A stretch of DNA of 55,336 nucleotides from Syntrophomonadaceae bacterium (GCA_003554525.1 PWGO01000004.1:1-55336); one strand, 5' to 3'. Counted from the stretch's first letter, positions 7,109-40,760 are shown. Program-made: numbers and translations. The notes: generated by a model not told the origin, from the letters alone.

Positions 7109-7178
7109 ATGGCCTCACCTTTTTTAAAAAATATATTTGCTGGAGATGACCTGCCTTGTTTTATGAAAGTTAATTTAG

Positions 7179-8549: not shown

Positions 8550-8579
8550 TATACTTACCTCCCTATGGTTTGTTTGTTT

Positions 8580-9227: not shown

Positions 9228-9263
9228 ATAAACCTCTCCCTTTCTGTTTATTTTTAGCTAAAA

Positions 9264-10547: not shown

Positions 10548-10576
10548 TTATGGCACTCCTTTACTGTAATAGTTAA

Positions 10577-11188: not shown

Positions 11189-11290
11189 GAATATTTTCAA
11201 GAGAATGTACCTCCTTTGGCCCCCTGGATTAAAACCGTGGGAAAAAAGCTGCAGGAGTGGTTGAAGCACCCCTGCAGCTTAAGCAAACCC

Positions 11291-12322
11291 CTAGTAACCA
11301 AATTCCTCTCTGGCTTCTTCCAGCTCTTGCATGATGTCTTCGCCAATCATATCCCGGTGTTCATCCCATACATCTTCACCGACTTCAATCCAGCGCTCCC
11401 TTTCCTCTTCCTCCAGGTGGTGGATTTCCATACCTTTTTCTTCCAGCTCATCTATGCAGCGCTGTTCATCTTTGATTACTTCTTCTCTCCATTCCCTGGT
11501 TTCTTCTACAATAATTTCTTCCATTAAATCACGGATGTCGTCGGGCAGGCCTTCCCACCAGTCAATATTTACGGTGTAGTTAATCAGGCAGTGCAGGTGG
11601 CGGCTCCGGGTCATGTAGTCCTGAAATTCCCAGTAACCCTGGTGCAGGAAAGAATCCGGGCCGGTCATGGCTCCGTCAATAACTCCCTGTTGCAGGGCGG
11701 TAGGTGCTTCAATGCCGGCGATAAATTCGGGTGATCCCCCCGCTGCTTCGATAAAGTCTCCCAGGACCGGGCCGTAGGCCCTCATCCGGATGCCTTCCAT
11801 ATCTTCCAGGGTAGTAATGGGATAGTCCGCGTTGGTAATGTCAATATACGAGTAGTCCATGGAGGCGATTACTCTGATGCCGTAATCTTCTAAAGGTCCA
11901 AAAGCCTTGTCGGGCACATCGGTTTCATCCAGAACGTGATACAGGACTTCCCTTTCCGGAAAAGCAAATGGGAGTTCAAAAACAGCTGGCTCGTCCGACA
12001 GGGCCAGCAGATAAGCGTTGACTACAGGAGTGATCTCTATGTCTCCTCTCTGTACCGCTTCTACTGCCGCGTCAGGCTCGTACAGCTGGGCTGCCGGGTA
12101 AATTTCAAACTGCACCTTGCCGTCGCTTTCTTCTTCAATTCTTTCTGCAATTTTCCGGTTCAGCCTGGCCGGGTGCAATTCATCAATGTAAGCGTAAGAC
12201 ATCCTAACTGTTATCGTATCATCGTCGCCTACTGCGTCACAGCCGGAAACAAACCACATGGAAGTCAAACCTAGCAAAACCGCCAGAAGCATTGTCAGGA
12301 GTGCTTTACCCCTCTTTTTCAT
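11291..12322 (-). CDS. dctP: TRAP transporter solute-binding lipoprotein (DctP family)
   Basis: 343 aa. Signal peptide with lipobox ...WFVSGC. AAGGAGG lies 8 nt upstream of the ATG. The C-terminal tail is acidic. It is followed by dctQ and dctM. Confidence 0.85.
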   Translation of the reverse strand: MKKRGKALLTMLLAVLLGLTSMWFVSGCDAVGDDDTITVRMSYAYIDELHPARLNRKIAERIEEESDGKVQFEIYPAAQLYEPDAAVEAVQRGDIEITPVVNAYLLALSDEPAVFELPFAFPEREVLYHVLDETDVPDKAFGPLEDYGIRVIASMDYSYIDITNADYPITTLEDMEGIRMRAYGPVLGDFIEAAGGSPEFIAGIEAPTALQQGVIDGAMTGPDSFLHQGYWEFQDYMTRSRHLHCLINYTVNIDWWEGLPDDIRDLMEEIIVEETREWREEVIKDEQRCIDELEEKGMEIHHLEEEERERWIEVGEDVWDEHRDMIGEDIMQELEEAREEFGY

Positions 12323-14836: not shown

Positions 14837-16585
14837 ATGGTTGATTTAAACAGCCTGGTGGATGAGCGAAAATCAACAGATGTGCTGGTAGTAGGTGCGG
14901 GAGGAGCGGGAGCCAGAGCTGCAATAGCTGCCGCGGAAAACGGTTCCAGGGTTACAGTAGCTGTTAAAGATCTTTTTGGACACAGCGGTTGTACCCCGGT
15001 AGCCATGGGCGGGCATGCCGGGTATGTCGATTACCCGGGTGACAGCTGGATGGTTTATTTTACGGACACAGTAGTAGGTGGAGGTTTTTTAAACAATCAA
15101 AAGCTGGTTGAAGTATTAACCAAAGAAGGCAAACAGAGATTTTGTGAACTGGAAGACTGGTGTGCTGCTTTTGACCGGGATGAGGACAACAAAGTGTACC
15201 TCAGAAGATTCGGAGGACATACTTTCAACCGCAGTACTATAAGTGGAGACCGTACCGGACGTGAAATGATGTGGGCCCTTAAAAGGAAGTGTTTTCAAAA
15301 CGAGCTGGTGGAAGTAAAGGACGAAGTTTTTTTGACACGCCTTTTAGTTAAAGAGGGAAAAATAAACGGGGCCATAGGAGTAGATACCCGTAAAGGTACC
15401 GTTATACTGTTTGAATGCCCTACGGTTATTCTGGCCAGCGGGGGCAGCGGCAGGCTTTGGCCTATTACTTTTTCTACCAAAGGTAAAGTTGGGGACGGGC
15501 CATACCTTGCTTTTGAAGCCGGTGCAGAAGTCAGGGATATAGAGTTTTTCCAAATACATCCGACGGGCTGGCTATGGCCTCCGGCCATCAGGGGCCGGGT
15601 TGTTAGTGAAGGGGTTCGTGCTGATGGTGGTATTTTGCGAAATTGTAACGGGGAAAGATTTATGGAAAGGTACGACCCGCTTAAAAAAGAGCTGGCTACC
15701 AGGGATTACGTTTCCCGCTGCATATTTAAAGAGGTGCAGGAAGGCCGGGGAAGCGAACACGGCGGGGCCTACCTGGATGTAACGCATTTTCCGCCCGAGT
15801 TTATTGAAAGAAGATTAAGCTCCGTAATGGAAACTGGCCTGGTTGGGGGAGTGGATATTAGAAAAGAGATGTTTGAAATTATACCGGAGCATCATTATCA
15901 AAACGGCGGGGTTGATATTAACGAGTGGGCCGAGACCAGGATAGAAGGTCTTTACGCCTGCGGTGAAGCGGCCGGAGGAGTGCACGGCGGAAACCGCCTG
16001 GGAAGCAATTCGCTGCCAGACCTGCTGGTGTTTGGTGCCAGGTCGGGGGAAAGAGCCAGTGAATACGCTGCTTCAAACCAGCCTCCCGGCATAGATAAAA
16101 GCCAGGTTAAAGATGAAGTAGAAAAAATTACTGCACCCCTGCAGAACGACAGCGGCATTGATCCTTTTGAAATATCAAGGAAACTTCACCAGGTAATGTT
16201 TGAAGAGATGCATATAGCCCGCAATGAAAAGGGACTGAATAGGTGCTTAAATGATCTTGAAGAGGCGGAAGGTCAACTGGAAAAAATATCTGTTCCGGGG
16301 GGCTTGAGAGGAAACGAAGCCTGGGCTACTGCCATGGAACTGAGGCCACGGGTGACAGTGGGTAAAATGATGGTAAAAGCTTCACTGGAAAGAACGGAAA
16401 GCAGGTCCGCCCTTTTCCGGGAGGATTATCCCAAAATTAACCGGGAAGAGTGGGATAAGAATATACTGGTCAGGAAAGAAGACGGAAACGGCATGAAGCT
16501 TTATACCAAGCCTGTAGAAGTACTGCACCTTACGCCCCAACAGGTTAATCTGCCTTACTTCCCGGTTCCAGGGGAAGACAAGTAG
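14837..16585 (+). CDS. succinate dehydrogenase / fumarate reductase flavoprotein-like subunit (TfrA/SdhA-like)
   Basis: 582 aa. FAD fold VVGAGGAGARAAIAAAENG. GHSGCTPVAMGG aligns with the canonical RSHTVAAQGG. Also FQIHPTG, HHYQNGGV and GVHGGNRLGSNSLPDLLVFG. Confidence 0.85.
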   Translation: MVDLNSLVDERKSTDVLVVGAGGAGARAAIAAAENGSRVTVAVKDLFGHSGCTPVAMGGHAGYVDYPGDSWMVYFTDTVVGGGFLNNQKLVEVLTKEGKQRFCELEDWCAAFDRDEDNKVYLRRFGGHTFNRSTISGDRTGREMMWALKRKCFQNELVEVKDEVFLTRLLVKEGKINGAIGVDTRKGTVILFECPTVILASGGSGRLWPITFSTKGKVGDGPYLAFEAGAEVRDIEFFQIHPTGWLWPPAIRGRVVSEGVRADGGILRNCNGERFMERYDPLKKELATRDYVSRCIFKEVQEGRGSEHGGAYLDVTHFPPEFIERRLSSVMETGLVGGVDIRKEMFEIIPEHHYQNGGVDINEWAETRIEGLYACGEAAGGVHGGNRLGSNSLPDLLVFGARSGERASEYAASNQPPGIDKSQVKDEVEKITAPLQNDSGIDPFEISRKLHQVMFEEMHIARNEKGLNRCLNDLEEAEGQLEKISVPGGLRGNEAWATAMELRPRVTVGKMMVKASLERTESRSALFREDYPKINREEWDKNILVRKEDGNGMKLYTKPVEVLHLTPQQVNLPYFPVPGEDK

Positions 16586-16639
16586 GAGAAGTAATTAAAG
16601 AGTTAATTTATTTGATGAAAAGAAAAGGAGTGAAACCGC

Positions 16640-18178
16640 ATGGGTGAAACTATCAGAGTTGAGATTTTCAGGTTTGACCCGGAATCCGAAGCAAGTGGAA
16701 GTTTTAAGGAATATACCCTGGAAAAAGATGTCCCCGGGATGCGTATATTGATGGCTTTAAATGCTTTAAACCAGAAACAAGAAGCAAATATATCTTACCG
16801 GTTTTCCTGCGAAGAATGGCAGTGTGGTTCCTGTGCCATCCAGGTAAACGGGGTTCCCAAACTGGCTTGTAAGGAGGAAATACACGACGGGGACAGGTTG
16901 GAACCGCTCCCTGTCTTCCCGGTAATAAAAGACCTGATGGTTGATTTAAGTCAAAGCTTTGAAAAACACGTGGAGCTTGCGCGCCTTAAAGTAAAAGAAA
17001 CGGGGGATCCGCTGGATTACGATACCCAGTCCAGGCTGTGGGAAAGTATTAATTGCATGCAGTGTGATATATGTGTGGCTTCCTGTCCTATGATGTTAAC
17101 CACGGGAAATTCCTACAGTTACACGGGGCAGGAGTACATGATACAGCTATACCGCATGGAATTTGATCCCCGCTACGAAAGCGAAGCCTTGAGGAAAACT
17201 ATTGAAGATGGTCTGTGGGAATGCTTTACCTGCCGCCAGTGCGAAAACAATTGTCCCCAGAGGATACCGCTGACCAAAAACATGGTGGATCTGCGTTCGC
17301 GAGTAATGGAGAAAGATCCTACCCTGCTTCCTCCTACCATACGTGATTTAAACGAAAACCTGTTTAAGCACGGCAACGAATTTGGAGTTCCCAGGTTTAA
17401 GAGAACGGAATGGACAGGGGAGCTGGAAGTACCGCAGCTGCAGGACGGAGAAAAGGAATACCTTTATTTTGTAGGGTGTTCCGAATCTTCAGACCAGCTA
17501 AACCAGGCAGCTGCAAGGGCCATGGTTAACGTGCTAAACCGACTTCAAATTAGCTACGGTATACTGGGTGAGGAAGAAGTATGTGCCAGCGATGCGGCCC
17601 TGCAGACGGGAGAAGTTGATTTGTTCGAGGAGCTGGCCGAAACCAATATAAAAACTTTCAAGAAATACAATGTTTCCAGGGTGATTACTTCTTCTCCGCA
17701 CGTTTATCACATTATTAAAAACGAGTATCCACAGTACGGGGGAGAATATGAAGTCATGCATTACGTTCAGCTGCTGGAAAAAGCACTAAAGGAAGGAAAA
17801 CTTGAATTTAACCAATCTATTAACCAGACTGTCACTTATCATGATCCCTGCTTTTTAGGGCGTTACAATGAAATTTACGAAGCGCCGCGCAAAGTTTTGC
17901 AGGGCTTGCCCGGAGTAGAACTGGTAGAAATGGAGAAAAACAGGGAACAAGCCGAGTGCTGCGGCGGCGGAGGAGGTGGAATGTGGATGGAGATACCCCC
18001 CGGGGAGAGAGTTTCCGAGCGCCGGGTACAGCAGGCCGCTGATACCGGTGCAGGCGTCCTGGTAGTAGCTTGCCCGTGGTGCTGCAGCATGTTCGACGAC
18101 GCCATCAAGAATAAAGGCCTGGAAGAAAAATTGCAAGTTAAACACATCCTGGAGCTTATAGACGAGGCCTTGCAGTAG
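16640..18178 (+). CDS. iron-sulfur subunit: SdhB-like N-terminus fused to two CCG (heterodisulfide-reductase-type) domains (TfrB-like)
   Basis: 512 aa. CEEWQCGSCAIQVNGVPKLAC is 2Fe-2S-like. CMQCDICVASCP and CFTCRQCENNCP are 4Fe-4S motifs. The C-terminal half carries ...YFVGC... and ...ECCGGGGG...VACPWCCSMF. No membrane-anchor gene is adjacent. Confidence 0.8.
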   Translation: MGETIRVEIFRFDPESEASGSFKEYTLEKDVPGMRILMALNALNQKQEANISYRFSCEEWQCGSCAIQVNGVPKLACKEEIHDGDRLEPLPVFPVIKDLMVDLSQSFEKHVELARLKVKETGDPLDYDTQSRLWESINCMQCDICVASCPMMLTTGNSYSYTGQEYMIQLYRMEFDPRYESEALRKTIEDGLWECFTCRQCENNCPQRIPLTKNMVDLRSRVMEKDPTLLPPTIRDLNENLFKHGNEFGVPRFKRTEWTGELEVPQLQDGEKEYLYFVGCSESSDQLNQAAARAMVNVLNRLQISYGILGEEEVCASDAALQTGEVDLFEELAETNIKTFKKYNVSRVITSSPHVYHIIKNEYPQYGGEYEVMHYVQLLEKALKEGKLEFNQSINQTVTYHDPCFLGRYNEIYEAPRKVLQGLPGVELVEMEKNREQAECCGGGGGGMWMEIPPGERVSERRVQQAADTGAGVLVVACPWCCSMFDDAIKNKGLEEKLQVKHILELIDEALQ

Positions 18179-18224: not shown

Positions 18225-19490
18225 GTGGCCAGAATTCACGAATATCAGGGTAAAGAAGTATTAAAAAATTGCGGAATTCCCGTTCCCAGGGGAATGGTTG
18301 CTCAGGATGCGGAGGAAGCAAAAAGATACATGGAAGAGCTGGGTAAACCTGCGGCTCTAAAAGCACAAGTGCTTACCACCGGTCGCTACAAGGCTGGAGG
18401 TATTAAGTTTGCATCGGATCCCGAAGAAGCAGCCAACCGGGCCCGGGAACTGTTTGATACCAGGGTAAGAGGTTTACAGGTAGATCAGCTACTGGTGGAG
18501 GAAAAACTGGATATTAAAAGTGAGTATTACCTGGGGATTATAATTAATAACTCCCACAAGGTCAAGTCTCCTACGCTAATCCTTAGCAGCAGGGGCGGGG
18601 TTGACGTTGAAGAAATAGCTTCCAGCACGCCGGAGAAAATTGCCTATTTAAATGTAGATTACCTGCAAGGGGTAGGAGAAGATGAAGCGGAGAAGATTTT
18701 AGGCATGGTTTCTTTCGATGAAGAGTTAAGCGGCGAGGCTAAAGAAGAGATGAAGAAAATAATATCCAGCTTCTACCAATCCTATATGGAAAGCGATGCC
18801 AGGATAGCGGAAATCAACCCCCTGGTTTTAACCCAGGATGGCCGCCTGCTGGCAGGCGATTGCCGTTTTACCATCGACGATAATTCAGATTTCCGTCAAA
18901 CCCGGTTTGGAATCAGGCTGCCGCGCGACATGGACCGCTCTCCTACAGAACTGGAGTATATAGCGTGGACAATTGAAGAGGGTGACTTCCGGGGTACCGG
19001 CTATTTTACCCAGATGGTGCCGGAGATAGATAAAGAAGGTTATATAGGTTTCCACGGTATTGGGGGCGGAGGCGCTATGCTGGCGGCCAGTGCCCTGGTT
19101 AACCGTAATTTCAAGATAGCGAACTATACCGATACCAGCGGAGACCCTCCGGCCAGCAAAGTGTACCGCGTGGTAAAATGCATATTTTCTCAACCCATTG
19201 AAGGTTATGCCCTGATGGGAGCCTGCCTGGCCAACCAGGAGCAGTGGCACCATGCGCATGCCCTGGTAAAGATACTAAGGGAAGAAGCGGAAAACAGGCC
19301 CGGTTTCCCGGTAGTGCTGCTGTTGGCCGGGAACAGGGAAAAAGAGACCCACGACATAATTGAAAAAGGATTAAAAGATGCAAACCTTCGCTGGGAACTG
19401 TACGGCAGGCAGTATATCTACAACACTGATTATATTGCGGAAAGGATACAAAAGCTGGTGGAGGATTATAGAGAAGAACAAAGGAGGTAA
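18225..19490 (+). CDS. ATP-grasp beta-like subunit of an ADP-forming acyl-CoA synthetase (SucC / malate-thiokinase-like, divergent), unit 1
   Basis: 421 aa, GTG start with AGGAGGTG 8 nt upstream. The N-terminus MARIHEYQGKEVLKNCGIPVPRG is SucC-like. TTGRYKAGGI replaces the canonical GGRGKAGGV. It is about 35 aa longer than a typical SucC. Confidence 0.8.
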   Translation: MARIHEYQGKEVLKNCGIPVPRGMVAQDAEEAKRYMEELGKPAALKAQVLTTGRYKAGGIKFASDPEEAANRARELFDTRVRGLQVDQLLVEEKLDIKSEYYLGIIINNSHKVKSPTLILSSRGGVDVEEIASSTPEKIAYLNVDYLQGVGEDEAEKILGMVSFDEELSGEAKEEMKKIISSFYQSYMESDARIAEINPLVLTQDGRLLAGDCRFTIDDNSDFRQTRFGIRLPRDMDRSPTELEYIAWTIEEGDFRGTGYFTQMVPEIDKEGYIGFHGIGGGGAMLAASALVNRNFKIANYTDTSGDPPASKVYRVVKCIFSQPIEGYALMGACLANQEQWHHAHALVKILREEAENRPGFPVVLLLAGNREKETHDIIEKGLKDANLRWELYGRQYIYNTDYIAERIQKLVEDYREEQRR

Positions 19491-19495
19491 GCCAG

Positions 19496-19822
19496 ATGAA
19501 TGATAAAAAGATCTCTTTTGAAACCAAGACGGCTAAAATAGAAATTAACCTGGACAAGTGTGCAGCAGCCAGGGAGAACAGTCCCAACCCTTCCTGCGGG
19601 TTTATGTGTGTAAAAGCTTGCCGGCTTTACGGTCGTAACGTTTTAAAAATTGAAAACAACCGGCCGGTTTTAACAGTTAGCGACCCGGAAGAAATAAAAC
19701 GGCTGGATAATGAGTGCCTGGCCTGTGAATTTAACTGTAAGATGTATGGTTCTGACTGTATTAACATTGAAATACCTCTGGAGGGGATAGAAGAGTACCG
19801 TAAGAAAGTGCTTTCCAGGTAG
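19496..19822 (+). CDS. small Cys-rich ferredoxin-like protein between the beta-like and alpha-like subunits, unit 1
   Basis: 108 aa with 8 Cys: C-x12-C-x3-C-x3-C ... C-x2-C-x3-C-x6-C. AAGGAGG upstream. It shares LDKC, CV.AC and CLACE..C..YG with 38294..38626. Confidence 0.6.
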   Translation: MNDKKISFETKTAKIEINLDKCAAARENSPNPSCGFMCVKACRLYGRNVLKIENNRPVLTVSDPEEIKRLDNECLACEFNCKMYGSDCINIEIPLEGIEEYRKKVLSR

Positions 19823-19863
19823 AAGTTTCTAAAGCCAAGGGATATTTGAAAGGAGTGAACCGC

Positions 19864-20769
19864 ATGGCCATTTTAATTGATGAGAACACCAAGGTTTTGG
19901 TGCAGGGTATAACTGGAAGGTTTGGAGAGCTGGTGACCAGGAACATGCTGGACAGCGGAACCAACATTGTGGCAGGGGTTACACCCGGACGAGGGGGACA
20001 GAAAGTCTGGGATGTCCCGGTTTATGATAGTGTAGGCGAGGCAATGGAAAAAGAAGGTGAGATAGATACTTCACTGATTGTGGTTCCCGGCCCCGCGGCC
20101 AAGAAAGGTGCCCTGGAAGCAATTGATGCTGGTATAAGAACTATTTTGATGGAAGTAGAAAGGATACCGCTGCACGATTCGCTGGAAGTAATATCCCGGG
20201 CGGAAAAAGCAGGGGTAAGGCTTATAGGCCCCGGTTCAGGAGGGGTGGTTTCTGCCGGTAAAGCGACACTTGGTTTTATCGGTTCCGCTTCTGATGTGGC
20301 TAAAGCGGCTTTTAAACCGGGAAAGCTGGGGGTTATATCGCGCAGCGGCGGACAGACATCAACTCTTTCCTGGGTAGTGGTTAACTCTGGATTTGGGGTT
20401 AGCACGGCTATAAACCTGGGTTCGGAACCGGTACTGGGTACGATGTTCCCGGAACTTTTACCCATGTTTGAAGAAGATGATGAAACAGACGGAGTGGTGT
20501 ATTTTGGCGAAATCGGTACCGTTATGGAAGAAGAGGCAGCCGAAGTAATGAAAGAAGGACGATATACCAAGCCCCTGGTAGCCTATATTGCAGGAAAAGG
20601 CTTGCCTTCCGGGTTACGATTTTCTCACGCCAGTGCCATTATTGAAGGAGGAAGGGGTTCGGCGGAGAGCAAGATTTCAACCTTGAGAGATGCAGGAGCG
20701 CATGTGGTGGAGAATCCTCATGAGCTGTTCTCGGTGCTGCAGAAAGTATTTGGCCCCGGGCAGGGCTAA
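19864..20769 (+). CDS. CoA-binding alpha-like subunit of an ADP-forming acyl-CoA synthetase (SucD-like), unit 1
   Basis: Start at ATG 19864, with AAAGGAGTGA upstream. MAILIDENTKVLVQGITGRFG is SucD-like. Also SRSGGQTST and a phosphohistidine-loop equivalent, RFSHASAII (canonical GHAGAI). Confidence 0.85.
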   Translation: MAILIDENTKVLVQGITGRFGELVTRNMLDSGTNIVAGVTPGRGGQKVWDVPVYDSVGEAMEKEGEIDTSLIVVPGPAAKKGALEAIDAGIRTILMEVERIPLHDSLEVISRAEKAGVRLIGPGSGGVVSAGKATLGFIGSASDVAKAAFKPGKLGVISRSGGQTSTLSWVVVNSGFGVSTAINLGSEPVLGTMFPELLPMFEEDDETDGVVYFGEIGTVMEEEAAEVMKEGRYTKPLVAYIAGKGLPSGLRFSHASAIIEGGRGSAESKISTLRDAGAHVVENPHELFSVLQKVFGPGQG

Positions 20770-20803: not shown

Positions 20804-21733
20804 ATGAGCGTGGTCCTTAGAACAATGCTTTATGTGCCTTCAAACAGTTGGCGGATGATAAACAATGCTACCAGGGAAATGGCGGATGCAGTAATACTGG
20901 ACCTGGAGGATGCTGTTTCTTTAGAAGAAAAAGAAACCGGCAGGATATTTTCCAGGGATTCCGTGGGTACATTGAAAGAGGCCGGACTGGATGTTTATGT
21001 CCGGGTTAACTCCACTTCCAGCGGCCTCTTGAAAGAGGACATACCGTACGTGGTAGTAGAAGGCCTGGATGGTATTATGCTGGCCAAGACAGAAACCAGC
21101 GAGGATATAATAGATGTAGACAGGCAGATAAGCGAAGAAGAAAAGAAAAAAGGAATAACACAAAACCGTACCGGTATAATTCCCCTGATTGAGAATCCCC
21201 TGGGAGCGCAGAATGTGTTTGAAATAACAGAAGCCAGCCAAAGAGTAGTTGGTGTTGGTTTCGGTGCAGGAGATTACTTGCGGGAAATGGGTGTAGGTTT
21301 TGCCATAACCAGGCTTACAGCAAGAGAATATTTCCCGGCTATCCTTTATGCGCGTTCCCGGATAGCCAATGCCGCCAATATTGCCGGTATAGAAGCAATT
21401 GACACCCCGTTTTTCGGCTTGCTTATTGATACCGAAGGGCTGGTTAATGAGGCGGAATCGGTTAAACTGCTTGGTTTTACCGGCAAGCAGCTGGTTCACC
21501 CGCGGCATATAGAACCTGTAAACAGGGTTTTTGCGCCCTCGGAAGAAGACCTGGAATACGCCAAAAAAATGGTGGAAGTTTATGAAGATGCAAAAGCAAA
21601 GGGGTTGGGCTCTGCTTCTTACCAGGGTCGCATGATAGATTATGCCATGTATAAGATGGGCATGGACATGCTAAATAAAGCTGAAAGGATTTCGGAAAAA
21701 GAAAAAATGAAGCCCGAAGATAGTTTAACCTGA
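20804..21733 (+). CDS. HpcH/HpaI-CitE-family acyl-CoA lyase (malyl-/citramalyl-CoA lyase or citrate lyase beta-like)
   Basis: 309 aa. MLYVPSNS...ADAVILDLEDAV...K is the CitE-type N-terminal signature. TAGGAGGG lies upstream of the ATG. Confidence 0.8.
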   Translation: MSVVLRTMLYVPSNSWRMINNATREMADAVILDLEDAVSLEEKETGRIFSRDSVGTLKEAGLDVYVRVNSTSSGLLKEDIPYVVVEGLDGIMLAKTETSEDIIDVDRQISEEEKKKGITQNRTGIIPLIENPLGAQNVFEITEASQRVVGVGFGAGDYLREMGVGFAITRLTAREYFPAILYARSRIANAANIAGIEAIDTPFFGLLIDTEGLVNEAESVKLLGFTGKQLVHPRHIEPVNRVFAPSEEDLEYAKKMVEVYEDAKAKGLGSASYQGRMIDYAMYKMGMDMLNKAERISEKEKMKPEDSLT

Positions 21734-21915: not shown

Positions 21916-22121
21916 GCGGCAGTTAGTTTTTAAAGTATTTAGCAGTGCTCCCAGCAAAACTTTAAAAAATAATCACTCAATTAAGTTAAAGCCCTGTCCC
22001 GGCAGATTTAATATAAGTTTAATGTATTTCTAAACCGGCGGGTGTAACTAACACCTCAGTAAAGTTTATAAACTTTCAGTATATAAAGTGCAGTTTAATG
22101 TATAAGGAGGAGAGAAAAAAA

Positions 22122-23039
22122 ATGATAACACAACAGGTTTTAGGCAAAGCCATTTTTGAAACCATAAAAAAGGCATCCTGTTGTATACCGGGTGATATTG
22201 AAGAGGCGTTCCAGGACTCTATAAGCCGGGAAAGCTCTTCAGTTTCTAAGATGGCCCTGGAAGCAACCCTGGAAAGCCTGCAGCGTTCCAGGGAAACTTC
22301 ACTACTGGCTTGCCCGGATACGGGGTGGCCTCTATTTTTTGTGGAAGTAGGAGATGAAGCTGTAGTTGAAGGAGGCCTGCGGGTAATTGAGACCGCCTCC
22401 AAAAGGGCGGTGGAAAAGGCGACACATGAAGGGTACCTGCGTGCTACTATGAAACATCCCCTTACCGGTGAAGATCCCGGCAACAATATTGGAAATAATG
22501 TTCCCAATTTTACTTACAAATTCGTGCCCGGGGACACTATCAAGTTAACCTTTGTTCCTAAAGGTGGGGGGTCGGAATGCTTTGGGGGAACGCGTTACCA
22601 GGTAATGGCTTTTGCAGACGGCCTAACTGCCATCAAGAAATTTATTGTAGACGCTTATATAGCGGCTTCCCGCGCCGGGGCTATCTGCCCGCCTTCCGTC
22701 CTGGGAGTAGGTATTGGGGGTACTTCCGATATTTCCACCAAACTTGCCAAGGAAGCGGCTGCTTTGAGGAAAGTAGGCAGCAAAAACCCCGAGCCTGAAA
22801 TTGCCCGGATAGAAGAAGAACTGTATGAAGGAATAAACCGGCTGGGTATTGGAGCCATGGGGTCGGGGGGAGACGTTTCTGTTTTTGATGTGAACGTAGA
22901 ATACGCGTATACTCACCTGGCGGGGATAGCCGTGGCCATGAACGCCAACTGTTTTATTGCCCGCCGTGCTACCGTAGAGGTTGACGGTAAAGGAAATATT
23001 AAAGAACACGAAAGTCCAAACTGGTTTAACGGGAGGTAG
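22122..23039 (+). CDS. Fe-S-type hydro-lyase alpha subunit (class I fumarate / L-tartrate / mesaconate hydratase family)
   Basis: Start at ATG 22122, with AAGGAGGAG 9 nt upstream. The track's ATG 22098 lies upstream of the RBS. About 305 aa with CPDTGWP and VPKGGGSE type blocks. The beta subunit follows 5 nt later. Confidence 0.85.
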   Translation: MITQQVLGKAIFETIKKASCCIPGDIEEAFQDSISRESSSVSKMALEATLESLQRSRETSLLACPDTGWPLFFVEVGDEAVVEGGLRVIETASKRAVEKATHEGYLRATMKHPLTGEDPGNNIGNNVPNFTYKFVPGDTIKLTFVPKGGGSECFGGTRYQVMAFADGLTAIKKFIVDAYIAASRAGAICPPSVLGVGIGGTSDISTKLAKEAAALRKVGSKNPEPEIARIEEELYEGINRLGIGAMGSGGDVSVFDVNVEYAYTHLAGIAVAMNANCFIARRATVEVDGKGNIKEHESPNWFNGR

Positions 23040-23044
23040 GTAAA

Positions 23045-23668
23045 ATGGCTGAATATCACCTGAAAACTCCACTGCAGGATGAGGAGATAAAGGATTTAAA
23101 AACAGGGGATAAAGTATATTTTTCCGGGGAAGCCTGGACGTGCCGCTCAAAGCTGCAGAAAACTGTTTTTGACGAGGGGTGGAAGCTGCCTTTTGACACC
23201 CGGGAAAAAAACCTGTTGATTCATGTAGGCCCAGTTATTATAGATGAAGGCGGTAATTGGAAACTGGTATCATTCCAGCCCACTTCCAGTATACGGTTTG
23301 AAAAGTGGGGCCCCGCCTCGGTTAAAGACCTAGGTTTGAAAGCCATAATCGGCAAAACCACCATGGGAAAAGATAGCCAGGAAGCCATGAAAAAATACTG
23401 CTGCATTCACGCTACTCCCCTGGGAGTAACCCCTACTCTTTTTATTGAAAGAATAAAAGTTAAAGAAGTTCACTGGCTGGAAGAAATGGGTAGTATTGAA
23501 GCGGCCTGGATACTGGAACTTGACGAACTGGGCCCCTTCCTGGTAGATATTGACTGTGAGGGCAAAAACCATTTTGACCACCTGGACGAAAAAATTGCCG
23601 CCAACCGCAGGTCTGTATACCAGGAGATGGGTATACCGGAGGATTTTGAGTATACCAGGTTATATTAA
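23045..23668 (+). CDS. Fe-S-type hydro-lyase beta subunit
   Basis: 207 aa. LKTGDKVYFSGEAWTCRSK..., IIGKTTMG and the overall size are typical of the beta region of two-subunit class I hydratases. Confidence 0.85.
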   Translation: MAEYHLKTPLQDEEIKDLKTGDKVYFSGEAWTCRSKLQKTVFDEGWKLPFDTREKNLLIHVGPVIIDEGGNWKLVSFQPTSSIRFEKWGPASVKDLGLKAIIGKTTMGKDSQEAMKKYCCIHATPLGVTPTLFIERIKVKEVHWLEEMGSIEAAWILELDELGPFLVDIDCEGKNHFDHLDEKIAANRRSVYQEMGIPEDFEYTRLY

Positions 23669-23747: not shown

Positions 23748-23785
23748 TGAGGGGAAGGATTGAGGGGAAGGATTGAGGGGAAGGA
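23748..23785. repeat. 13-bp tandem repeat TGAGGGGAAGGAT x~3, each unit containing a Shine-Dalgarno-like core
   Basis: Units at 23748-23760 and 23761-23773, plus a truncated unit at 23774-23785. They end 8 nt before ATG 23794. Confidence 0.9.
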
Positions 23786-23793
23786 AGGTTTAT

Positions 23794-24489
23794 ATGGAAA
23801 AACTACCATCCTGTGCCAGGTGTAGCTTAAATACGGAAGAAAAAATATGTCGTTCCCCGGGGGGGAAAGGACCGGATTTTTGTCCTACCAGGTTTATGAG
23901 GGAAGCCCTGGAAAAAGCCCGGGAAAAACTTTCCGACCGGGTAATTTACGAGTTTGCACGCCAGGCTTCTATTCAGGAAGGGGAAGGGTATATTAACCGG
24001 GAAGTTAAACCTCACGTGCGCCACCCGGTTAAACCCAGGTTGGAAGAAATCTGTGATTTTGCGGCCCGAATGGGGTGCCGCAGGTTGGGACTGGCATACT
24101 GTGGAGGGTTGCAGTACGAGGCGAGCCTTCTCCAGAAGGTGTTGGAAGCGCATAATTTTGATTTGGTTTCCGTAGTATGCAAGGTGGGTGGCACCTCCAA
24201 GGAAGAAATCGGCCTTACCGAGGAGCAGAAAGTAAGGATAGGAGAGTTTGAACCCATGTGCCACCCCCTGGCTCAAGCGGAAATTCTAAACCAGGCCGGG
24301 ACCGATTTAAATATAATAATGGGGTTGTGCGTGGGCCACGATTCACTTTTTATTAAGCAGGCCCGGGCCATGACCACTGTATTTGCGGTTAAAGACCGGG
24401 TCTTGGGCCACAATCCTGTGGCGGCACTGTATACGCTGAATTCTTATTACCAGAGATATATAAAAAAACCGTTTGCCAATAATAAATAA
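23794..24489 (+). CDS. Cys-rich putative metal-binding protein (DUF1847-like)
   Basis: 231 aa from ATG 23794. The track's TTG 23773 lies inside the repeat. The N-terminus is CARCS...EEKIC...GPDFCPT, with later LAYCGG, VCKVGG and MGLCVGHD. The family assignment is from memory only. Confidence 0.55.
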   Translation: MEKLPSCARCSLNTEEKICRSPGGKGPDFCPTRFMREALEKAREKLSDRVIYEFARQASIQEGEGYINREVKPHVRHPVKPRLEEICDFAARMGCRRLGLAYCGGLQYEASLLQKVLEAHNFDLVSVVCKVGGTSKEEIGLTEEQKVRIGEFEPMCHPLAQAEILNQAGTDLNIIMGLCVGHDSLFIKQARAMTTVFAVKDRVLGHNPVAALYTLNSYYQRYIKKPFANNK

Positions 24490-28545: not shown

Positions 28546-28738
28546 AACATAGATAAGAAAAGCTAAATCAGGTGGTGTGCTCCCTTTTAAAGTTGTTGTT
28601 ATTTAAGGAGGTGAGTTAAAACGGCATGAGGGGAAGTTGCTCGAGCCGGCAGATATAACCAATACTTGAAAACGGAATTTGGTTGAAGTTTGGAATATAA
28701 GAAACTATATTATTTTAATAAACCGGGAGGTATTAAAT

Positions 28739-29833: not shown

Positions 29834-29880
29834 GAGGTAGACGGCTATCACAAATATACTGCAGTTAAAGGAGGTTAACC

Positions 29881-31761: not shown

Positions 31762-31810
31762 ACGTTTCACGGGCTTAAACAAATAAATTTTGTGAATCTC
31801 ATCTCACTAA

Positions 31811-31856
31811 TTACTAAGGGTGCATGAAATTTATTTATGCACCCTTAGTAATTTTA
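31811..31856 (+). terminator. strong rho-independent terminator after AOR-2
   Basis: A perfect 15-bp stem, TTACTAAGGGTGCAT / ATGCACCCTTAGTAA, with an 11-nt loop, followed by TTTT. Confidence 0.85.
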
Positions 31857-32046: not shown

Positions 32047-32133
32047 TGGTTAGTATTATAAACCTTATGTTTGCTTAAACGGTGGAGTAATAGTAATCCT
32101 GGTCGATTAAAGTAAACAGGGGTGATTAGCGTT

Positions 32134-36029: not shown

Positions 36030-36893
36030 TTGATGGAGGTGAAAAAAGTGACGGAACAGAGTAGCGGCAGAAAAGGATGGTGGGATAGCTCCATTTTTAA
36101 GGCAGAACCGAACAAGCTGTTGTACAGGGGTTACCGTATAGAGGATTTGTTAGGCCGCGTTTCATACGGTGAAATGGTTTATTTGATGGTCAAGGGTGAA
36201 CTGCCCCGCAAAAACGCAGGAAGGCTTATGGATGCTCTCCTGGTAGCGGCATGCGACCATGGGGCGGTATCACCTGCGGTAACCGCCTCCATGATGGCTG
36301 CCACCTGCGGGGTTACTTTTAACTCAGTAATAGCTACGGGTATGAACCTCCTGGGAAGAATACACGGGGGTGCAGTGGAAGAAGCCATGCGGGTTTACCT
36401 GGAGGCTGGAAGAGAAGTGGAAGATGGCCGGGAAGAGCTGGAAGTGTGCCGGGAAATTGCCCGGCGCTATAAAGAAAACAAACATTTTGTTCCCGGCTAC
36501 GGGCATCCCGTACACGACGATGATCCCCGGGTAAAAAAGCTTTTGGAAATGGGCTCGGAGGTGGTTCAGCTTGGGGAAATAAGCGGCAGGTATATATCTA
36601 TTTCACGGACCATGGGTGAATGTATAAACGAAAATTCCCGCCGACATATACCTTTAAACGTGGATGCGGCTATTGCAGCACTGTTGTGTGAGCTGGAACT
36701 GCCCCCGGAAACGGCCATGGGGTATATCTGTCTGTCGCGTGGAATTGGCCTGATGGCGCATGGCTACGAGGAATACCGGAAAGGAACCAGGATGAAAGCA
36801 CCCTGCCCTCCGGACATCTTGAAGGAAGAGATGACGTATTCTGGCCCGTCGGAAAGAGACCTCCCGGAGGAGCGCGAAAAAAATAAGGAGTAA
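36030..36893 (+). CDS. short citrate-synthase-family protein (citryl-CoA-lyase-like)
   Basis: About 281-287 aa, far shorter than a full citrate synthase. LLYRGYRIEDL, GRIHGGAVEE, VPGYGHPVH and PLNVDAAIA are the citrate-synthase catalytic His/His/Asp contexts. The start is ambiguous (TTG 36030, ATG 36033, or GTG 36048 with GGAGGTG 6 nt upstream). Confidence 0.75.
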   Translation: MMEVKKVTEQSSGRKGWWDSSIFKAEPNKLLYRGYRIEDLLGRVSYGEMVYLMVKGELPRKNAGRLMDALLVAACDHGAVSPAVTASMMAATCGVTFNSVIATGMNLLGRIHGGAVEEAMRVYLEAGREVEDGREELEVCREIARRYKENKHFVPGYGHPVHDDDPRVKKLLEMGSEVVQLGEISGRYISISRTMGECINENSRRHIPLNVDAAIAALLCELELPPETAMGYICLSRGIGLMAHGYEEYRKGTRMKAPCPPDILKEEMTYSGPSERDLPEEREKNKE

Positions 36894-37014: not shown

Positions 37015-38286
37015 ATGGCAAGGCTGCTGGAATACCAGGGGAAGGAACTGCTAAAGAAGTCGAAAATAAAAGTGCCCCGTGGGGAAGTAGTTGAAAGCAT
37101 GGAGAGGGCCGTGGCTGCTGCTTTAGAGATAGGTTTCCCGGTTATGGTAAAAGCCCAGGTGTTTCGCGGGGGAAGGGGAAAAGCCGGGGGCATTCATAAA
37201 GCGGAAGATATGACTTCCCTGGATAAGATTTGCAGGACGTTGCTGGGGAACGAGGTGGGCGGGTTAAAGGTAGAGAAGTTGCTGGTGGAAGAAAAGCTGG
37301 ACATAAAAAAAGAGGTTTACCTGGCGATAACGGGAGACCCTCAGACCCGCAAACCGGTGTTAATTTTCAGCGAAACCGGGGGAGTAGATATTGAAGAAGT
37401 TGCCCGTAATAACCCGGAAAAGGTAGTGTCGCAAACCATTGATATTTTAGAAGGACTTTACGATTACCAGGCCCGGAATGCTATTCGGAAGTGTCCCGGT
37501 CTGGACGGCAGAGAAATGGTCAAGTGTGCCGAAGCTGCTACCGGGCTATTTCTTGTTTACCGCGGTTACGATTGCAAACTGGTGGAAATCAACCCGATGG
37601 TTATCACTACCGGGGGTGAACTGCTGGCGGCTGATGCCCGTGTAGACGTGGATGATGATGCCGTATGGCGACACCCGGAGCTGGGCCTTACCGCGGCGGA
37701 AGAGGCGGGAGACCGGCCTTCCACGCTTCTGGAAATGGAGGCCGGCTGTATTGACGAGGGCGATCACCGCGGCTCGGCTCATTTTGTCCAAATAGACCCG
37801 GACGGGGCTTATGCCGAAGAAACCGGTAAAATATCCATAGGGTTTAACACGGTGGGTACCGGCTGCGGCCTGACCTTGCTGGACGAAATAGTTCCGCTGG
37901 GTTACTACCCGGTGAACTTTTGTGATACCTCCGGCAACCCTACCTCCTTGAAAATGTACGCTGCCACCAGGATTATTTTTTCTCAGCCTGGTATAAACGG
38001 CTATATATTTGTCACGGGAGTTGCGGCACAGCTGCTGGATAATACTGCCAGGGGTATAATAAAAGCGCTCCTGGAGTTATACCCGGGAACAGGAGGGCAG
38101 CCAAACATACCCTGTGTTTTTGTTTTTCGGGGACGTTCCGATGAGGTGGCTCTGCAGCTTTTCGAGGAGCACGGAATAAGCAAAAGCCCCATGGTTAAAA
38201 TGATGGGGCGGTGGGCCACGGAAAAAGATGCGGCACGTGCTTTTGACGAATTATACCGGAAGTTTCAACCGGTGGGAAAGGAGTAG
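37015..38286 (+). CDS. ATP-grasp beta-like subunit of an ADP-forming acyl-CoA synthetase (SucC / citryl-CoA-synthetase large-subunit-like), unit 2
   Basis: 423 aa. MARLLEYQGKELLKKSKIKVPRG...KAQVFRGGRGKAGGI. GAAGGAGGAGG upstream. Confidence 0.8.
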   Translation: MARLLEYQGKELLKKSKIKVPRGEVVESMERAVAAALEIGFPVMVKAQVFRGGRGKAGGIHKAEDMTSLDKICRTLLGNEVGGLKVEKLLVEEKLDIKKEVYLAITGDPQTRKPVLIFSETGGVDIEEVARNNPEKVVSQTIDILEGLYDYQARNAIRKCPGLDGREMVKCAEAATGLFLVYRGYDCKLVEINPMVITTGGELLAADARVDVDDDAVWRHPELGLTAAEEAGDRPSTLLEMEAGCIDEGDHRGSAHFVQIDPDGAYAEETGKISIGFNTVGTGCGLTLLDEIVPLGYYPVNFCDTSGNPTSLKMYAATRIIFSQPGINGYIFVTGVAAQLLDNTARGIIKALLELYPGTGGQPNIPCVFVFRGRSDEVALQLFEEHGISKSPMVKMMGRWATEKDAARAFDELYRKFQPVGKE

Positions 38287-38293: not shown

Positions 38294-38626
38294 ATGCCGG
38301 AAATAATGAAGTTTAGAACCATGGGGGAAGCAACGGTAACCGTGGAACTGGATAAGTGCGGGGCATGTCGCAGCAAGGCCTGCGTAGAAGCATGTAGCAA
38401 ACCGCACATGGGTAATATCCTGGAACTGGACGGGGAAGGGAAACCCAGGCTGTTAATGGAGAAAAACAAGGTAAAACGTGGCGGATGTACGGACTGCCTG
38501 GCCTGTGAGCTTGACTGCAGGCTTTACGGTAAAGGGGCGCTAAAAATTAGCCTGGAAATGCCCTACCTGGAAGAACACCTGCGGCAATTAACCGAACGCG
38601 GGGAGAAAATAGTTTACCGGGATTAA
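38294..38626 (+). CDS. small ferredoxin-like protein between the beta-like and alpha-like subunits, unit 2
   Basis: 110 aa from ATG 38294. The track's earlier start overlaps the upstream gene. CGACRSKACVEAC and CTDCLACELDC make 8 Cys, with the second motif canonical CxxCxxCxxxC. It is a homolog of 19496..19822. Confidence 0.65.
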   Translation: MPEIMKFRTMGEATVTVELDKCGACRSKACVEACSKPHMGNILELDGEGKPRLLMEKNKVKRGGCTDCLACELDCRLYGKGALKISLEMPYLEEHLRQLTERGEKIVYRD

Positions 38627-38692: not shown

Positions 38693-39595
38693 ATGATGAG
38701 TATTCTATTGGATCAAAATACGGGATGTATGGTCCAGGGGATAACGGGAAGGGAAGCGCGAATACGCGCTGCTACCATGAAAGAATACGGAACCAGGCTT
38801 GTCTGTGGGATTACTCCCGGACGCGGAGGTGAAGTGGTGGAGGGAGATATCCCGGTTTACGATACCGTAGAAGAAGCGAAGGAAAACCACCCTGAGGTAG
38901 CGGCATCCGCGCTAATGGTGCCCGCCGCACTGGTGAAAAATGCCGCTTTTGAAGCCATTGATGCCGGTATAAAAGTTATTCTTTTAATTCCCGAAAGAGT
39001 TCCCCAGCAGGATATGCTGGAGATTATCGAGAGAAGCAGGAAAAAAGGTAGTTTTGTGGTTGGCCCCAACTCTATCGGGCTGATCAGCCCCGGGAAAGCC
39101 CTGCTGGGTATGATAGGGGGCACCCCGGAGCTGGCGCGGGAGCTTTTTAAAGAAGGCGAGTGCGGAGTGATGTCGCGAAGCGGAGGGCATACTACCACTA
39201 CTTCTTACTACCTTACCAGGGAAGGTGTGGGACAGAGTACTTGTGTAGCAGTGGGAGGCGACGCTTTTGTGGGCTCTTCTTTCGACGAGCTACTGCCCCT
39301 TTTTGAAACAGACCCGCAGACAAGGGCGGTGGTGATTTTTGGCGAACCGGGCACTACTGCCGAGGAAGATGTGGCCCGGATGATGGAAGAGAAAAAGTTT
39401 ACCAAGCCGCTTATCGCTTACGTAGCGGGGAAATACGTGCGCCCGGGTATGCGCTTTGGACATGCGGGAGCCATAATAAACAAGGGTGAAGGCAGGGTGG
39501 AAGATAAATTGCACAGGTTGAGAAAAGCAGGAGTTCACGTGGTGGATCACCTGGGGGATGTGGGAAAGGTAGCCCGTGAGCTTAACCTGAAATAA
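38693..39595 (+). CDS. CoA-binding alpha-like subunit (SucD / citryl-CoA-synthetase small-subunit-like), unit 2
   Basis: 300 aa. CMVQGITGREA, SRSGGHTTT and RFGHAGAII (phosphohistidine loop). AAGGAGG upstream. Confidence 0.85.
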   Translation: MMSILLDQNTGCMVQGITGREARIRAATMKEYGTRLVCGITPGRGGEVVEGDIPVYDTVEEAKENHPEVAASALMVPAALVKNAAFEAIDAGIKVILLIPERVPQQDMLEIIERSRKKGSFVVGPNSIGLISPGKALLGMIGGTPELARELFKEGECGVMSRSGGHTTTTSYYLTREGVGQSTCVAVGGDAFVGSSFDELLPLFETDPQTRAVVIFGEPGTTAEEDVARMMEEKKFTKPLIAYVAGKYVRPGMRFGHAGAIINKGEGRVEDKLHRLRKAGVHVVDHLGDVGKVARELNLK

Positions 39596-39608
39596 GGTGG
39601 GTAGACCT

Positions 39609-40760
39609 ATGTGGAGCCGCGAACAGGATCTTTTAAAATGTGTAATCATGCGGGGTGGGACCAGTAAAGCGGTGTTTTTTAAATCCAACGAGCTTCCCGG
39701 GAATCTGGCAGAGCGGGAAAGACTGATTTTAAAGGTTTTTGGTAGCCCTGATTTAAGGCAGATAGATGGACTGGGTGGAGCCGACGTTACTACCAGCAAG
39801 GTGGCTATTATCGGGCCTTCTACCAGGAAAGATGCAGATGTGGATTATACTTTTGGACAGGTTGGCTTGAACCAACCCCGGGTGGACTGGAATGTGAACT
39901 GCGGCAATATTTCTGCGGCAGTGGGCCCTTTTGCTGTAGACGAAGGGATGGTTCCTCCTGCAGAGGGGGAAACCAGGGTGCGTATATTTAATACCAATAC
40001 GCAGAAGATTATTACCGCCTTTGTTCCCGTGATTTCCGGGAAAGCAGCGGTAAAAGGTGAATACGCTATAGACGGTGTGCCGGGGCGGGGGGGGCGGATT
40101 AACCTGGACTACTCGCAGACAGTGGGGGCCGCCACGGGCAAGCTCCTGCCCACGGGAAACGCCGTAGATTATATCGAGCACAGCGGAAAGAAAGTGCCGG
40201 TTTCAGTGGTGGATGTAGCCAATCCTTCCCTGTTTATTGCTGCCGAAGAGGTAGGGCTTACCGGTAAAGAAGCCAGGCCGGCGCTGTCTTCTTGCACGGA
40301 GGTACTGCAGCATCTGGAAGAAATCCGTTGCATAGCCGCGGTAAAATGCGGTTTTGTAAAGAACCCGGGGGAGGCAACGGAGAAAAGCCCGGTCCGGCCC
40401 AAGGTTATCCTGGTAGCGGCTCCGGTTGATTATGAGGATTACGCAAGCGGTGAAATCATTGCCGGGGATAAAGTGGATTTCCTTTCCCGGGTGATCTGGA
40501 ACCAGGCCCCTGTGGAAACGCACACGGGAACAGGGGCGGTTTGTGCTGCTGCTGCGGCGCTGGTGCCAGGAACTGTTTTGAACATGGTAGCCTCCGAAAA
40601 AGCCAAAAACAGCGGCCTGGTGCGCATAGGACATCCCCGCGGCATCCTGGAACTGGAGTGCGAAACAAAGATGGAAGGCGGAAGTATTTCTTTCCAGCGG
40701 ATCTTTTTTGGAAGGACTGCCAGGAGAATTATGGAGGGATATGTATATATAACGGTTTAA
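39609..40760 (+). CDS. PrpF / 3-methylitaconate-isomerase / aconitate-isomerase family protein
   Basis: Start at ATG 39609, with AAGGTGG 8 nt upstream. LKCVIMRGGTSKAVFF is the family's N-terminal signature. About 383 aa. Confidence 0.85.
   Translation: MWSREQDLLKCVIMRGGTSKAVFFKSNELPGNLAERERLILKVFGSPDLRQIDGLGGADVTTSKVAIIGPSTRKDADVDYTFGQVGLNQPRVDWNVNCGNISAAVGPFAVDEGMVPPAEGETRVRIFNTNTQKIITAFVPVISGKAAVKGEYAIDGVPGRGGRINLDYSQTVGAATGKLLPTGNAVDYIEHSGKKVPVSVVDVANPSLFIAAEEVGLTGKEARPALSSCTEVLQHLEEIRCIAAVKCGFVKNPGEATEKSPVRPKVILVAAPVDYEDYASGEIIAGDKVDFLSRVIWNQAPVETHTGTGAVCAAAAALVPGTVLNMVASEKAKNSGLVRIGHPRGILELECETKMEGGSISFQRIFFGRTARRIMEGYVYITV

Follow-up and report, generated by a model that had tools for sequence, protein, structure and literature searches.

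A ferredoxin-like gene between the beta and alpha genes of a clade of acyl-CoA synthetases: a candidate iron-sulfur third subunit

Succinyl-CoA synthetase (SCS), malate thiokinase (MTK), citryl-CoA synthetase (CCS), and ATP-citrate lyase (ACL) are textbook enzymes, and we know of no metal-cluster requirement in any of them. A 55,336-nucleotide stretch of DNA from a Syntrophomonadaceae bacterium (GCA_003554525.1 PWGO01000004.1:1-55336; here called the window) raises the question of what a ferredoxin-like gene is doing in the middle of such a synthetase. That both SucCD-like gene pairs of the window are split by a Cys-rich open reading frame (ORF) of about 110 aa, as a preliminary description had it, proved exact to the coordinate in the ORF table, and Pfam domains confirmed it. 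The two triplets, referred to below as copy 1 and copy 2, are as follows.

18225..19490, plus strand: beta1 (421 aa), ATP-grasp large subunit of a putative ADP-forming hydroxyacid-CoA synthetase, malate-thiokinase-like
19496..19822, plus strand: small1 (108 aa), Cys-rich, ferredoxin-like; proposed iron-sulfur (Fe-S) gamma subunit
19864..20769, plus strand: alpha1, CoA-binding/phosphohistidine subunit (Pfam CoA_binding, Ligase_CoA, Succ_CoA_lig)
37015..38286, plus strand: beta2 (423 aa), ATP-grasp large subunit, citryl-CoA-synthetase-like (Pfam ATP-grasp_2, E=6e-57)
38294..38626, plus strand: small2 (110 aa), ferredoxin-like, with the family-consensus Cys pattern
38693..39595, plus strand: alpha2, CoA-binding/phosphohistidine subunit (Pfam CoA_binding, Ligase_CoA, Succ_CoA_lig)

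As set out below, a whole clade of synthetases appears to carry an obligatory, sometimes covalently fused, ferredoxin-like component.

The three-gene unit and its distribution

Both small genes start 5 to 7 nucleotides (nt) behind the stop codon of beta, small1 with the Shine-Dalgarno sequence AGGAGG 9 nt upstream and small2 behind GGAG/AGGTGG. These ribosome-binding sites, together with identities of 57 to 70% across phyla, mark the small ORFs as very probably real genes. The preliminary description had called for a survey of genomes for such triplets. A scan of one genome per GTDB species with a small-protein profile confirmed 319 loci, with an invariant gene order in those inspected. The module was thus present in at least 319 species-level genomes of Thermodesulfobacteriota, Chloroflexota, Bacillota, Actinomycetota, and several archaeal phyla; among its carriers are Bilophila wadsworthia, a gut pathobiont, and Moorella thermoacetica, the model acetogen, and the hosts are almost wholly anaerobes. 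Beta, small gene, and alpha followed one another on one strand at 84/84 loci examined through the small-profile scan and tblastn with the window proteins, and the same order was seen at all of the ~190 species-level bacterial and archaeal loci inspected overall; five loci of the copy 2 type share it.

The small gene accompanies one kind of beta subunit. When the scan was seeded with beta1, all 17 informative loci with a beta of at least 44% identity carried it, and beta1 orthologues at 44 to 63% identity invariably had it downstream, whereas none of ~60 canonical sucCD loci, whose beta is at most 40% identical, had it. A scan seeded with the Desulfosporosinus beta recovered the triplet at 78/78 loci. 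The small gene is likewise present beside orthologues of beta2 (49 to 69% identity) in Anaerolineae, Spirochaetota, and deltaproteobacterial metagenome-assembled genomes (MAGs). True citryl-CoA synthetase loci of Leptospirillum-like Nitrospirae (L279, L280, and L283) gave no small-gene match between beta and alpha, and at L279, for which ORFs were listed, alpha follows beta directly after a gap of 53 nt. One deltaproteobacterial MAG (L246 7260-7530) has a copy-2-type small gene split into ORFs of 47 and 41 aa, either an assembly frameshift or a pseudogene.

In addition to this linkage, the small protein is fused to either partner in some genomes. At least 10 representative proteins of 471 to 541 aa carry the domain at the extreme C terminus of beta behind a linker of 25 to 45 aa, and Ignisphaera, Thermosphaera, Nezhaarchaeales, and one Spirochaetota genome show this fusion too; since both copy-1-type and copy-2-type lineages contain such proteins, this fusion arose more than once. 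Its mirror image, an in-frame read-through from the small gene into alpha across an Arg/Pro-rich linker of 35 to 40 aa, was found in two Thermoleophilia MAGs (L226 9028-10542 and L232 9202-10551). Strict co-occurrence with one beta/alpha clade and fusions to both partners lead to the reading of the small protein as a third subunit, a possibility that the preliminary description had raised and that is now strongly supported. We consider it highly probable that the small protein is an integral subunit, forming a complex with beta and alpha. A separate case is protein cluster 3 (P0254-P0268), built at 90% identity, which holds the 95-aa Bilophila small protein along with 298-aa entries; the latter are alpha subunits, grouped there by a clustering artifact, and not fusions.

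The two copies in the window are distant from each other. Small1 and small2 share 28% identity over 98 residues (E=2e-13), in agreement with their proposed homology, while beta1 and beta2 are 36% identical and alpha1 and alpha2 49%. A recent in-genome or tandem duplication of the unit was dropped as an idea, because relatives in other phyla are much closer to each copy (60 to 70% identity for small1 and 60% for small2) than its partner in the window. The two copies instead descend, as ancient paralogues, from an ancestral three-gene unit. Of the earlier idea that the unit had been duplicated whole and kept, inheritance as a unit therefore stands, both lineages showing the beta-small-alpha order in many phyla; a recent duplication in this genome does not, the split being ancient.

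Beta and alpha of both copies contain the core domains of the NDP-forming (nucleoside diphosphate-forming) acyl-CoA synthetase superfamily (SCS/MTK/CCS/ACL). Beta1 matches Pfam ATP-grasp_2 (E=7e-55) and, weakly, Citrate_bind; its C-terminal half is Citrate_bind-like, unlike that of SucCD. A PDB search related beta1 and beta2 to SCS and CCS at E=1e-43 to 1e-54 overall, and for both proteins the best solved relative was the Thermus SCS (3ufx_B), followed by the CCS large subunit (6hxq_B; E=7e-45 for beta2). The window enzymes share with SucCD a two-subunit catalytic core, the domain set, and the catalytic His loop, which in translation is the canonical 'GHAGA' in alpha2 ('FGHAGAI') and keeps its His in alpha1 ('RFSHASAI'). 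They differ from SucCD in falling below the NCBIfam equivalog cut-offs: for SucC, beta1 reached 223 and beta2 242 bits (cut-off, 370), and for SucD, the two alphas reached 282 and 281 bits (cut-off, 336), with alpha1 also at 286 bits against 353. The MtkA equivalog NF010647 was missed as well, at 146 and 169 bits against 604. The superfamily rule of alpha and beta modules only is broken here by a third conserved gene between the two.

Cysteines and predicted fold of the small protein

Small1 has no match in Pfam or NCBIfam, and small2 matches Fer4_10 and Fer4_7 weakly (18.1 bits on Fer4_10, under the cut-off of 25.5); no threshold of either database is reached by either copy. Searches with small1 returned 169 homologues across phyla, not one with an informative name. 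A word-indexed search with small2 gave one homologue, the closely related P0002, which lies in an identical gene order; the family was revealed by an exhaustive profile search, with both types in the profile, of 1.8 billion representative proteins. This search yielded 104 cluster representatives, mostly of 85 to 130 aa, for which neither Pfam nor NCBIfam has a model of its own. The triplets do not appear under the name of any characterized enzyme class: the small protein is called "hypothetical protein" in RefSeq, "4Fe-4S ferredoxin-type domain-containing protein" in UniProt, and "Fe-S-cluster-containing dehydrogenase component" at JGI. A full-text literature search, with incomplete coverage and hence no proof of absence, found neither the small protein nor any genes of the anaerobic malyl-CoA pathway (discussed below) described.

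The dominant Cys consensus among the representatives is Cx2Cx4Cx3C…(25-30)…Cx2Cx2Cx3C, with a 4-residue spacer in the first motif and no Pro directly behind either motif; even across very deep divergence, seven Cys reach 90% conservation or more. Small2 conforms to the consensus (C22x2C25x4C30x3C34 … C65x2C68x2C71x3C75), and its second motif is the one canonical CxxCxxCxxxC, while small1 has stretched spacings (C22x11C34x3C38x3C42 … C74x2C77x3C81x6C88); the Cys positions agree with the preliminary description on both counts. All eight Cys of small1 are conserved in its subfamily, in which the second motif reads (D)x2Cx2Cx3Cx6C: in place of the first Cys stands an Asp that every examined member keeps, and an additional Cys lies downstream. 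A third form, that of the clade linked to glycolate operons, has seven Cys, with Gly replacing the first Cys of motif 2 in at least 113 of 164 distinct sequences, or about 125 when minor variants are counted. Such ligand variation is compatible with a cluster that need not hold an exact potential, and it could reflect a mixture of [3Fe-4S] and [4Fe-4S] clusters.

Of the Pfam families that members matched, all but one are in the Fer4 clan, with at most 21/55 members matching any one family and a best E value of 1.8e-7. The small-protein profile found nothing in the PDB by sequence. We then relied on an AlphaFold2 (AF2) model of small2 built from a 55-sequence alignment, which replaced a shallow-alignment model (predicted local distance difference test score [pLDDT], 72) with noise-level fold matches. 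The final model has a pLDDT of 95.5 and a predicted TM-score of 0.83, and its best Foldseek matches in the PDB are nearly all ferredoxin domains (probability 0.77 to 0.99; root-mean-square deviation 2.4 to 3.1 Å over ~75 columns; target-normalized TM-score up to 0.67; E of 0.04 or higher). They include the ferredoxin subunit of an archaeal 3'-phosphoadenosine-5'-phosphosulfate reductase (8a8o_D; probability 0.99, 2.6 Å), HydB of HydABC (7q4v_B; probability 0.98), the polyferredoxin FmdF, the delta subunit of pyruvate:ferredoxin oxidoreductase (PFOR), and Rhodopseudomonas ferredoxins (target-normalized TM-score, 0.65 to 0.67). Together, the Cys consensus, the Fer4-clan matches, and the confident model with its ferredoxin fold matches uphold the earlier label of a ferredoxin-like protein. 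Based on the model, we conclude that the small protein is a predicted diverged two-cluster domain of the 2x[4Fe-4S] ferredoxin type, ~75 residues long, to which an N-terminal hairpin and a C-terminal helix are added. It probably binds Fe-S.

In core size and, more loosely, in Cys motif and in its predicted fold when set against the (beta-alpha-beta)2 ferredoxin fold, the small protein resembles 2x[4Fe-4S] ferredoxins such as PFOR delta, the C-terminal domain of HydB, and FwdF/FmdF. It differs from them in the Cx2Cx4Cx3C first motif without a trailing Pro, in the added hairpin and helix, and in its partner, a non-redox ligase. A functional parallel is offered by ABCE1 (RNase L inhibitor), whose ferredoxin-like N-terminal domain carries two structural clusters on an ATP-using, non-redox machine. 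The parallel is one of function only, as the ATPase fold and biology are unrelated; a weak match to Fer4_RLI was found in 1/55 family members.

Operon contexts and candidate pathways

The neighboring genes in the window that bear on function are listed here.

14837-16585, plus strand: TfrA-like flavoprotein, soluble fumarate reductase/succinate dehydrogenase type, upstream of copy 1
16640-18178, plus strand: TfrB-like Fe-S/CCG subunit of the same pair
20804..21733, plus strand: HpcH/CitE-type acyl-CoA C-C lyase, malyl-/citramalyl-CoA lyase-like (Pfam HpcH_HpaI, E=2.5e-43); conserved fourth gene
22098-23039, plus strand: class I fumarase-type hydratase, alpha (Pfam Fumerase), downstream of copy 1
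23045-23668, plus strand: class I fumarase-type hydratase, beta (Pfam Fumerase_C)
32829-34202, plus strand: PrpD-family protein (Pfam MmgE_PrpD), upstream of copy 2
34232-35503, plus strand: aconitase-family large subunit (Pfam Aconitase)
35469-36011, plus strand: aconitase-family small subunit (Pfam Aconitase_C)
36030..36893, plus strand: citryl-CoA lyase, short citrate-synthase-like (NCBIfam NF004864, 302.7 bits, above the cut-off of 261); lyase partner of copy 2
39597..40760, plus strand: PrpF-family isomerase (Pfam PrpF, E=1.7e-115), downstream of copy 2

At 88/104 loci, the fetched region contains an HpcH/CitE lyase homologue, nearly always directly after alpha; in the copy 2 type, the lyase is a citryl-CoA lyase placed before beta. 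The copy 1 lyase scores below cut-off on every NCBIfam model (citE, 202 bits; RipC_Ccl, 133; malyl-CoA lyase, 70). Aldehyde:ferredoxin oxidoreductase genes were considered as a recurrent partner and dropped, occurring at 3/104 loci only.

Three operon contexts can be told apart. Context (i), the glycolate type, is that of the largest clade, with the seven-Cys small protein. In Desulfosporosinus, GlcF-GlcE-GlcD-cupin genes stand upstream of the module; that of Desulfofustis glycolicus DSM 9705, like that of many Desulfobulbales MAGs, lies behind a TRAP transporter gene and is followed by a fused GlcD/E and then GlcF; and in Bilophila, GlcD/E/F-type glycolate dehydrogenase genes adjoin the module. 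It was also found in Bilophila wadsworthia, Moorella, Neomoorella, Dehalobacter, Desulfitobacterium, and Acididesulfobacillus. Context (ii), the PrpD type, reads GntR-PrpD-beta-small-alpha-lyase-PrpD-transporter and contains no oxidoreductase. Window copy 1 belongs to this clade by sequence, yet it is flanked by TfrAB-like and fumarase-type genes, which stand in its neighborhood in place of GlcDEF. Context (iii), the citryl-CoA lyase (CCL) type represented by copy 2, joins PrpD, the aconitase-like pair, PrpF, and citryl-CoA lyase to beta-small-alpha, again with no oxidoreductase.

To our knowledge, no genes have yet been assigned to the anaerobic malyl-CoA pathway, which is known to us only from enzyme activities since the 1990s. 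The module resembles this pathway, as known from Syntrophobotulus glycolicus, D. glycolicus, and Moorella sp. HUC22-1, in that D. glycolicus and Moorella relatives that use glycolate carry it within glycolate-dehydrogenase operons. Glycolate and glyoxylate are reported to be degraded via malyl-CoA in D. glycolicus, Moorella, and Syntrophobotulus (PMC6313629; PMC8092247), and a citing paper credits Sakai et al. (2008) with a report of ATP synthesis by the Moorella pathway. Given this physiology and the glycolate-operon setting, the module fits a sequence from glyoxylate plus acetyl-CoA to malyl-CoA and on to malate plus ATP, and the ATP-yielding direction matches what has been reported (PMC6313629; PMC8092247). 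Most likely, then, the largest clade encodes the malyl-CoA lyase and malate thiokinase of anaerobic glycolate/glyoxylate metabolism, malate being assigned from operon context only; the analysis thereby offers candidate genes for this route of glycolate and glyoxylate oxidation. The serine-cycle enzymes MtkAB and malyl-CoA lyase likewise pair a SucCD-type beta/alpha with a CitE/HpcH-type lyase, but canonical MtkAB has two subunits, whereas the window clade always has the ferredoxin-like gene inserted. A complete beta-small-alpha-HpcH-lyase module is also present in Candidatus Dichloromethanomonas elyunquensis RM (L198 8001-11521); published analysis describes this organism as lacking canonical malyl-CoA lyase genes and as processing glyoxylate through glyoxylate carboligase (PMC8092247).

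For copy 1, the neighboring genes suggest that the substrate is malate or a C5 analogue, for example citramalate, and its flanks suggest an interconversion of malate, fumarate, and succinate or the C5 series of citramalate, mesaconate, and methylsuccinate. A PrpD-family methylsuccinate isomerase was recently described (PMC12290011). Fumarase genes adjoin the module in L012 and L085 too. For the TfrAB-like pair, which has the Pfam domains FAD_binding_2, Fer2_3, and CCG, the best NCBIfam matches were TfrA (555 bits) and TfrB (323 bits), both under cut-off. This pair (14837-18178) is a bacterial homologue of TfrAB, the thiol:fumarate reductase of methanogens; its TfrB-like subunit fuses 2Fe-2S, 4Fe-4S, and CCG parts, and no membrane anchor gene lies nearby. 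Between the fumarase-type genes, which it follows directly, and a PrpR-type sigma-54 activator (24590-26479) lies a gene for a Cys-rich DUF1847 protein (23773-24489).

Copy 2 is suggested by its neighbors to be a citryl- or methylcitryl-CoA synthetase-like enzyme, and its position amid PrpD, aconitase-like, and PrpF genes points to a substituted citrate, e.g., methylcitrate, rather than citrate. The PrpD/aconitase set accompanies copy-2-type modules in L165, L247, L248, and L250, citryl-CoA lyase keeps its place before beta in L165 and L250, and PrpF recurs beside modules of this type. Like CcsAB and Ccl of Hydrogenobacter and Leptospirillum, copy 2 is associated with a citryl-CoA lyase, which it directly follows and which passes the NCBIfam cut-off, and the CCS large subunit (6hxq_B) is the second-best solved relative of both window betas. 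True CCS loci, by contrast, lack the small gene, and their two-gene ccsA-ccsB arrangement is not that of the window. The gene after PrpF (40788-41651) encodes a 287-aa protein without a Pfam match; a homologue of 42% identity is encoded in a Dehalococcoides-related MAG (L012 2305-3162), where it neighbors fumarase-type genes ahead of the module.

The role of the small subunit

With modest confidence, we favor a non-catalytic role, structural or gating by redox state or O2, for the small protein as an integral Fe-S gamma subunit of a distinct, widespread clade of ADP-forming hydroxy-acid CoA synthetases. Because the domain is fused to the C terminus of beta in some proteins and to the N terminus of alpha in others, gamma would sit physically between these two ends. 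This would be the position of the interdomain linker in single-chain ACL, given the established architecture of that enzyme: the order beta-small-alpha(-lyase) mirrors the ACL domain order beta-linker-alpha-CCL, with the difference that the ACL linker is no Fe-S domain. Beta, gamma, and alpha, with the adjacent acyl-CoA C-C lyase, would then make up a two-step ATP-coupled "hydroxy-acid lyase/synthase." The clusters would keep the beta-alpha assembly together and tie synthetase activity to anoxic, iron-replete conditions, and they would not relay electrons in catalysis. A structural or gating role is favored because ligase chemistry has no net redox step, because contexts (ii) and (iii) are without an oxidoreductase, and because the domain is never fused or adjacent to redox genes.

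Several observations weigh against this reading. A flavoprotein/CCG Fe-S oxidoreductase is adjacent in two major contexts (GlcDEF, and TfrAB in the window). The Cys set differs by clade (eight canonical, seven with the first Cys of motif 2 lost, or eight shifted), which could mean different cluster types or no second cluster in some clades. The window copies score below the Pfam gathering thresholds, and the Foldseek E values are weak (0.04 or higher), though the matches are mutually consistent. As for the synthetases, the NCBIfam cut-offs for succinate-, malate-, and citrate-type enzymes were all missed except that for citryl-CoA lyase, and the substrates of copies 1 and 2 are guesses from neighboring genes. 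Finally, among the matches, most of them nameless, no homologue was named as coming from S. glycolicus, the classic organism of the malyl-CoA pathway.

The ferredoxin fold and Cys motif would also suit a dedicated electron carrier for the GlcDEF glycolate dehydrogenase or TfrAB, merely embedded in the synthetase operon or using the synthetase as a docking platform. GlcD/E/F genes adjoin most glycolate-clade loci, TfrAB stands directly upstream of copy 1, and CCG-domain Fe-S proteins are encoded less than 7 kb from several modules. Nevertheless, the small gene always lies between beta and alpha and never beside the oxidoreductase genes, its product is fused to beta or alpha and never to an oxidoreductase, and it is kept in PrpD-type and CCL/aconitase/PrpF operons that have no redox enzyme. 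That many operons are without an oxidoreductase argues against a general electron-carrier role, and we regard this explanation as unlikely. Electron transfer might instead be coupled to energy, the ATP or thioester energy shifting the potential of a bound cluster and so providing low-potential electrons for the energetically demanding glycolate/glyoxylate or succinate/fumarate steps encoded alongside. Such a scheme draws on the fusion of the domain to an ATP-grasp/phosphohistidine machine and on the glycolate- and succinate-type dehydrogenases that adjoin modules; the glycolate and succinate couples are both too positive for ferredoxin reduction. If true, such electron activation, driven by ATP or a thioester, would be of a type new to the SCS/ACL superfamily; that we know of no precedent there counts against it. 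Modules also occur without nearby dehydrogenase genes. Glycolate oxidation in S. glycolicus does need reversed electron transport, a problem that the neighboring glycolate- or succinate-oxidizing enzymes would share, but there it has been ascribed to a membrane system (PMC3156405). We rate energy coupling as very improbable.

Two further explanations dispense with Fe-S clusters or with the subunit itself. The Cys-rich domain could bind zinc or nothing, acting as a structural clamp derived from a ferredoxin that has lost its clusters. The variable ligand set (seven Cys at most loci and noncanonical spacings in copy 1), the missing Pro behind the last Cys of both motifs, and the sub-threshold Pfam scores of the window copies are compatible with this idea. 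However, the conservation of seven Cys at 90% or more across very deep divergence, the dominance of the 4+4 pattern in the representative search, and the anaerobic habit of nearly all hosts speak for clusters, and the exchange of Cys for a conserved Asp plus an extra Cys in the copy 1 subfamily looks like ligand swapping rather than decay; a cluster-free clamp therefore seems improbable to us. Hardly credible at all is the notion that the small ORFs are spurious or that they code for a factor which assists assembly only transiently and is no part of the mature enzyme. That no source gives them a functional annotation speaks for this notion, but it is at odds with identities of 57 to 70% across phyla, Shine-Dalgarno sites before both ORFs, the confident AF2 model, and permanent covalent fusions to beta and alpha.

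An integral Fe-S gamma subunit, the role that we favor, has practical consequences. An Fe-S function in a non-redox ligase is directly testable in cultured, partly genetically tractable organisms, and heterologous "SucCD-like" pairs recruited for synthetic malyl-CoA or citramalyl-CoA pathways would probably not work unless the small gene and anaerobic Fe-S assembly were supplied.

Around the two modules, positions 466-12322 and 27049-32754 of the window have the appearance of an anaerobic catabolic island. It encodes two tungsten-type aldehyde:ferredoxin oxidoreductases, two isochorismatase-family hydrolases, a carbon-nitrogen hydrolase, two extra PrpD paralogues, TRAP, SSF, and MFS transporters, and two sigma-54 activators, along with rpoN (41974-43377). 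The amide-hydrolase genes suggest that a nitrogen-containing or amide substrate feeds both CoA-synthetase modules. Just downstream of rpoN lies a gene for a 4-hydroxybutyryl-CoA dehydratase/HpaB-family protein (43527-45050; HpaB_N and HpaB).

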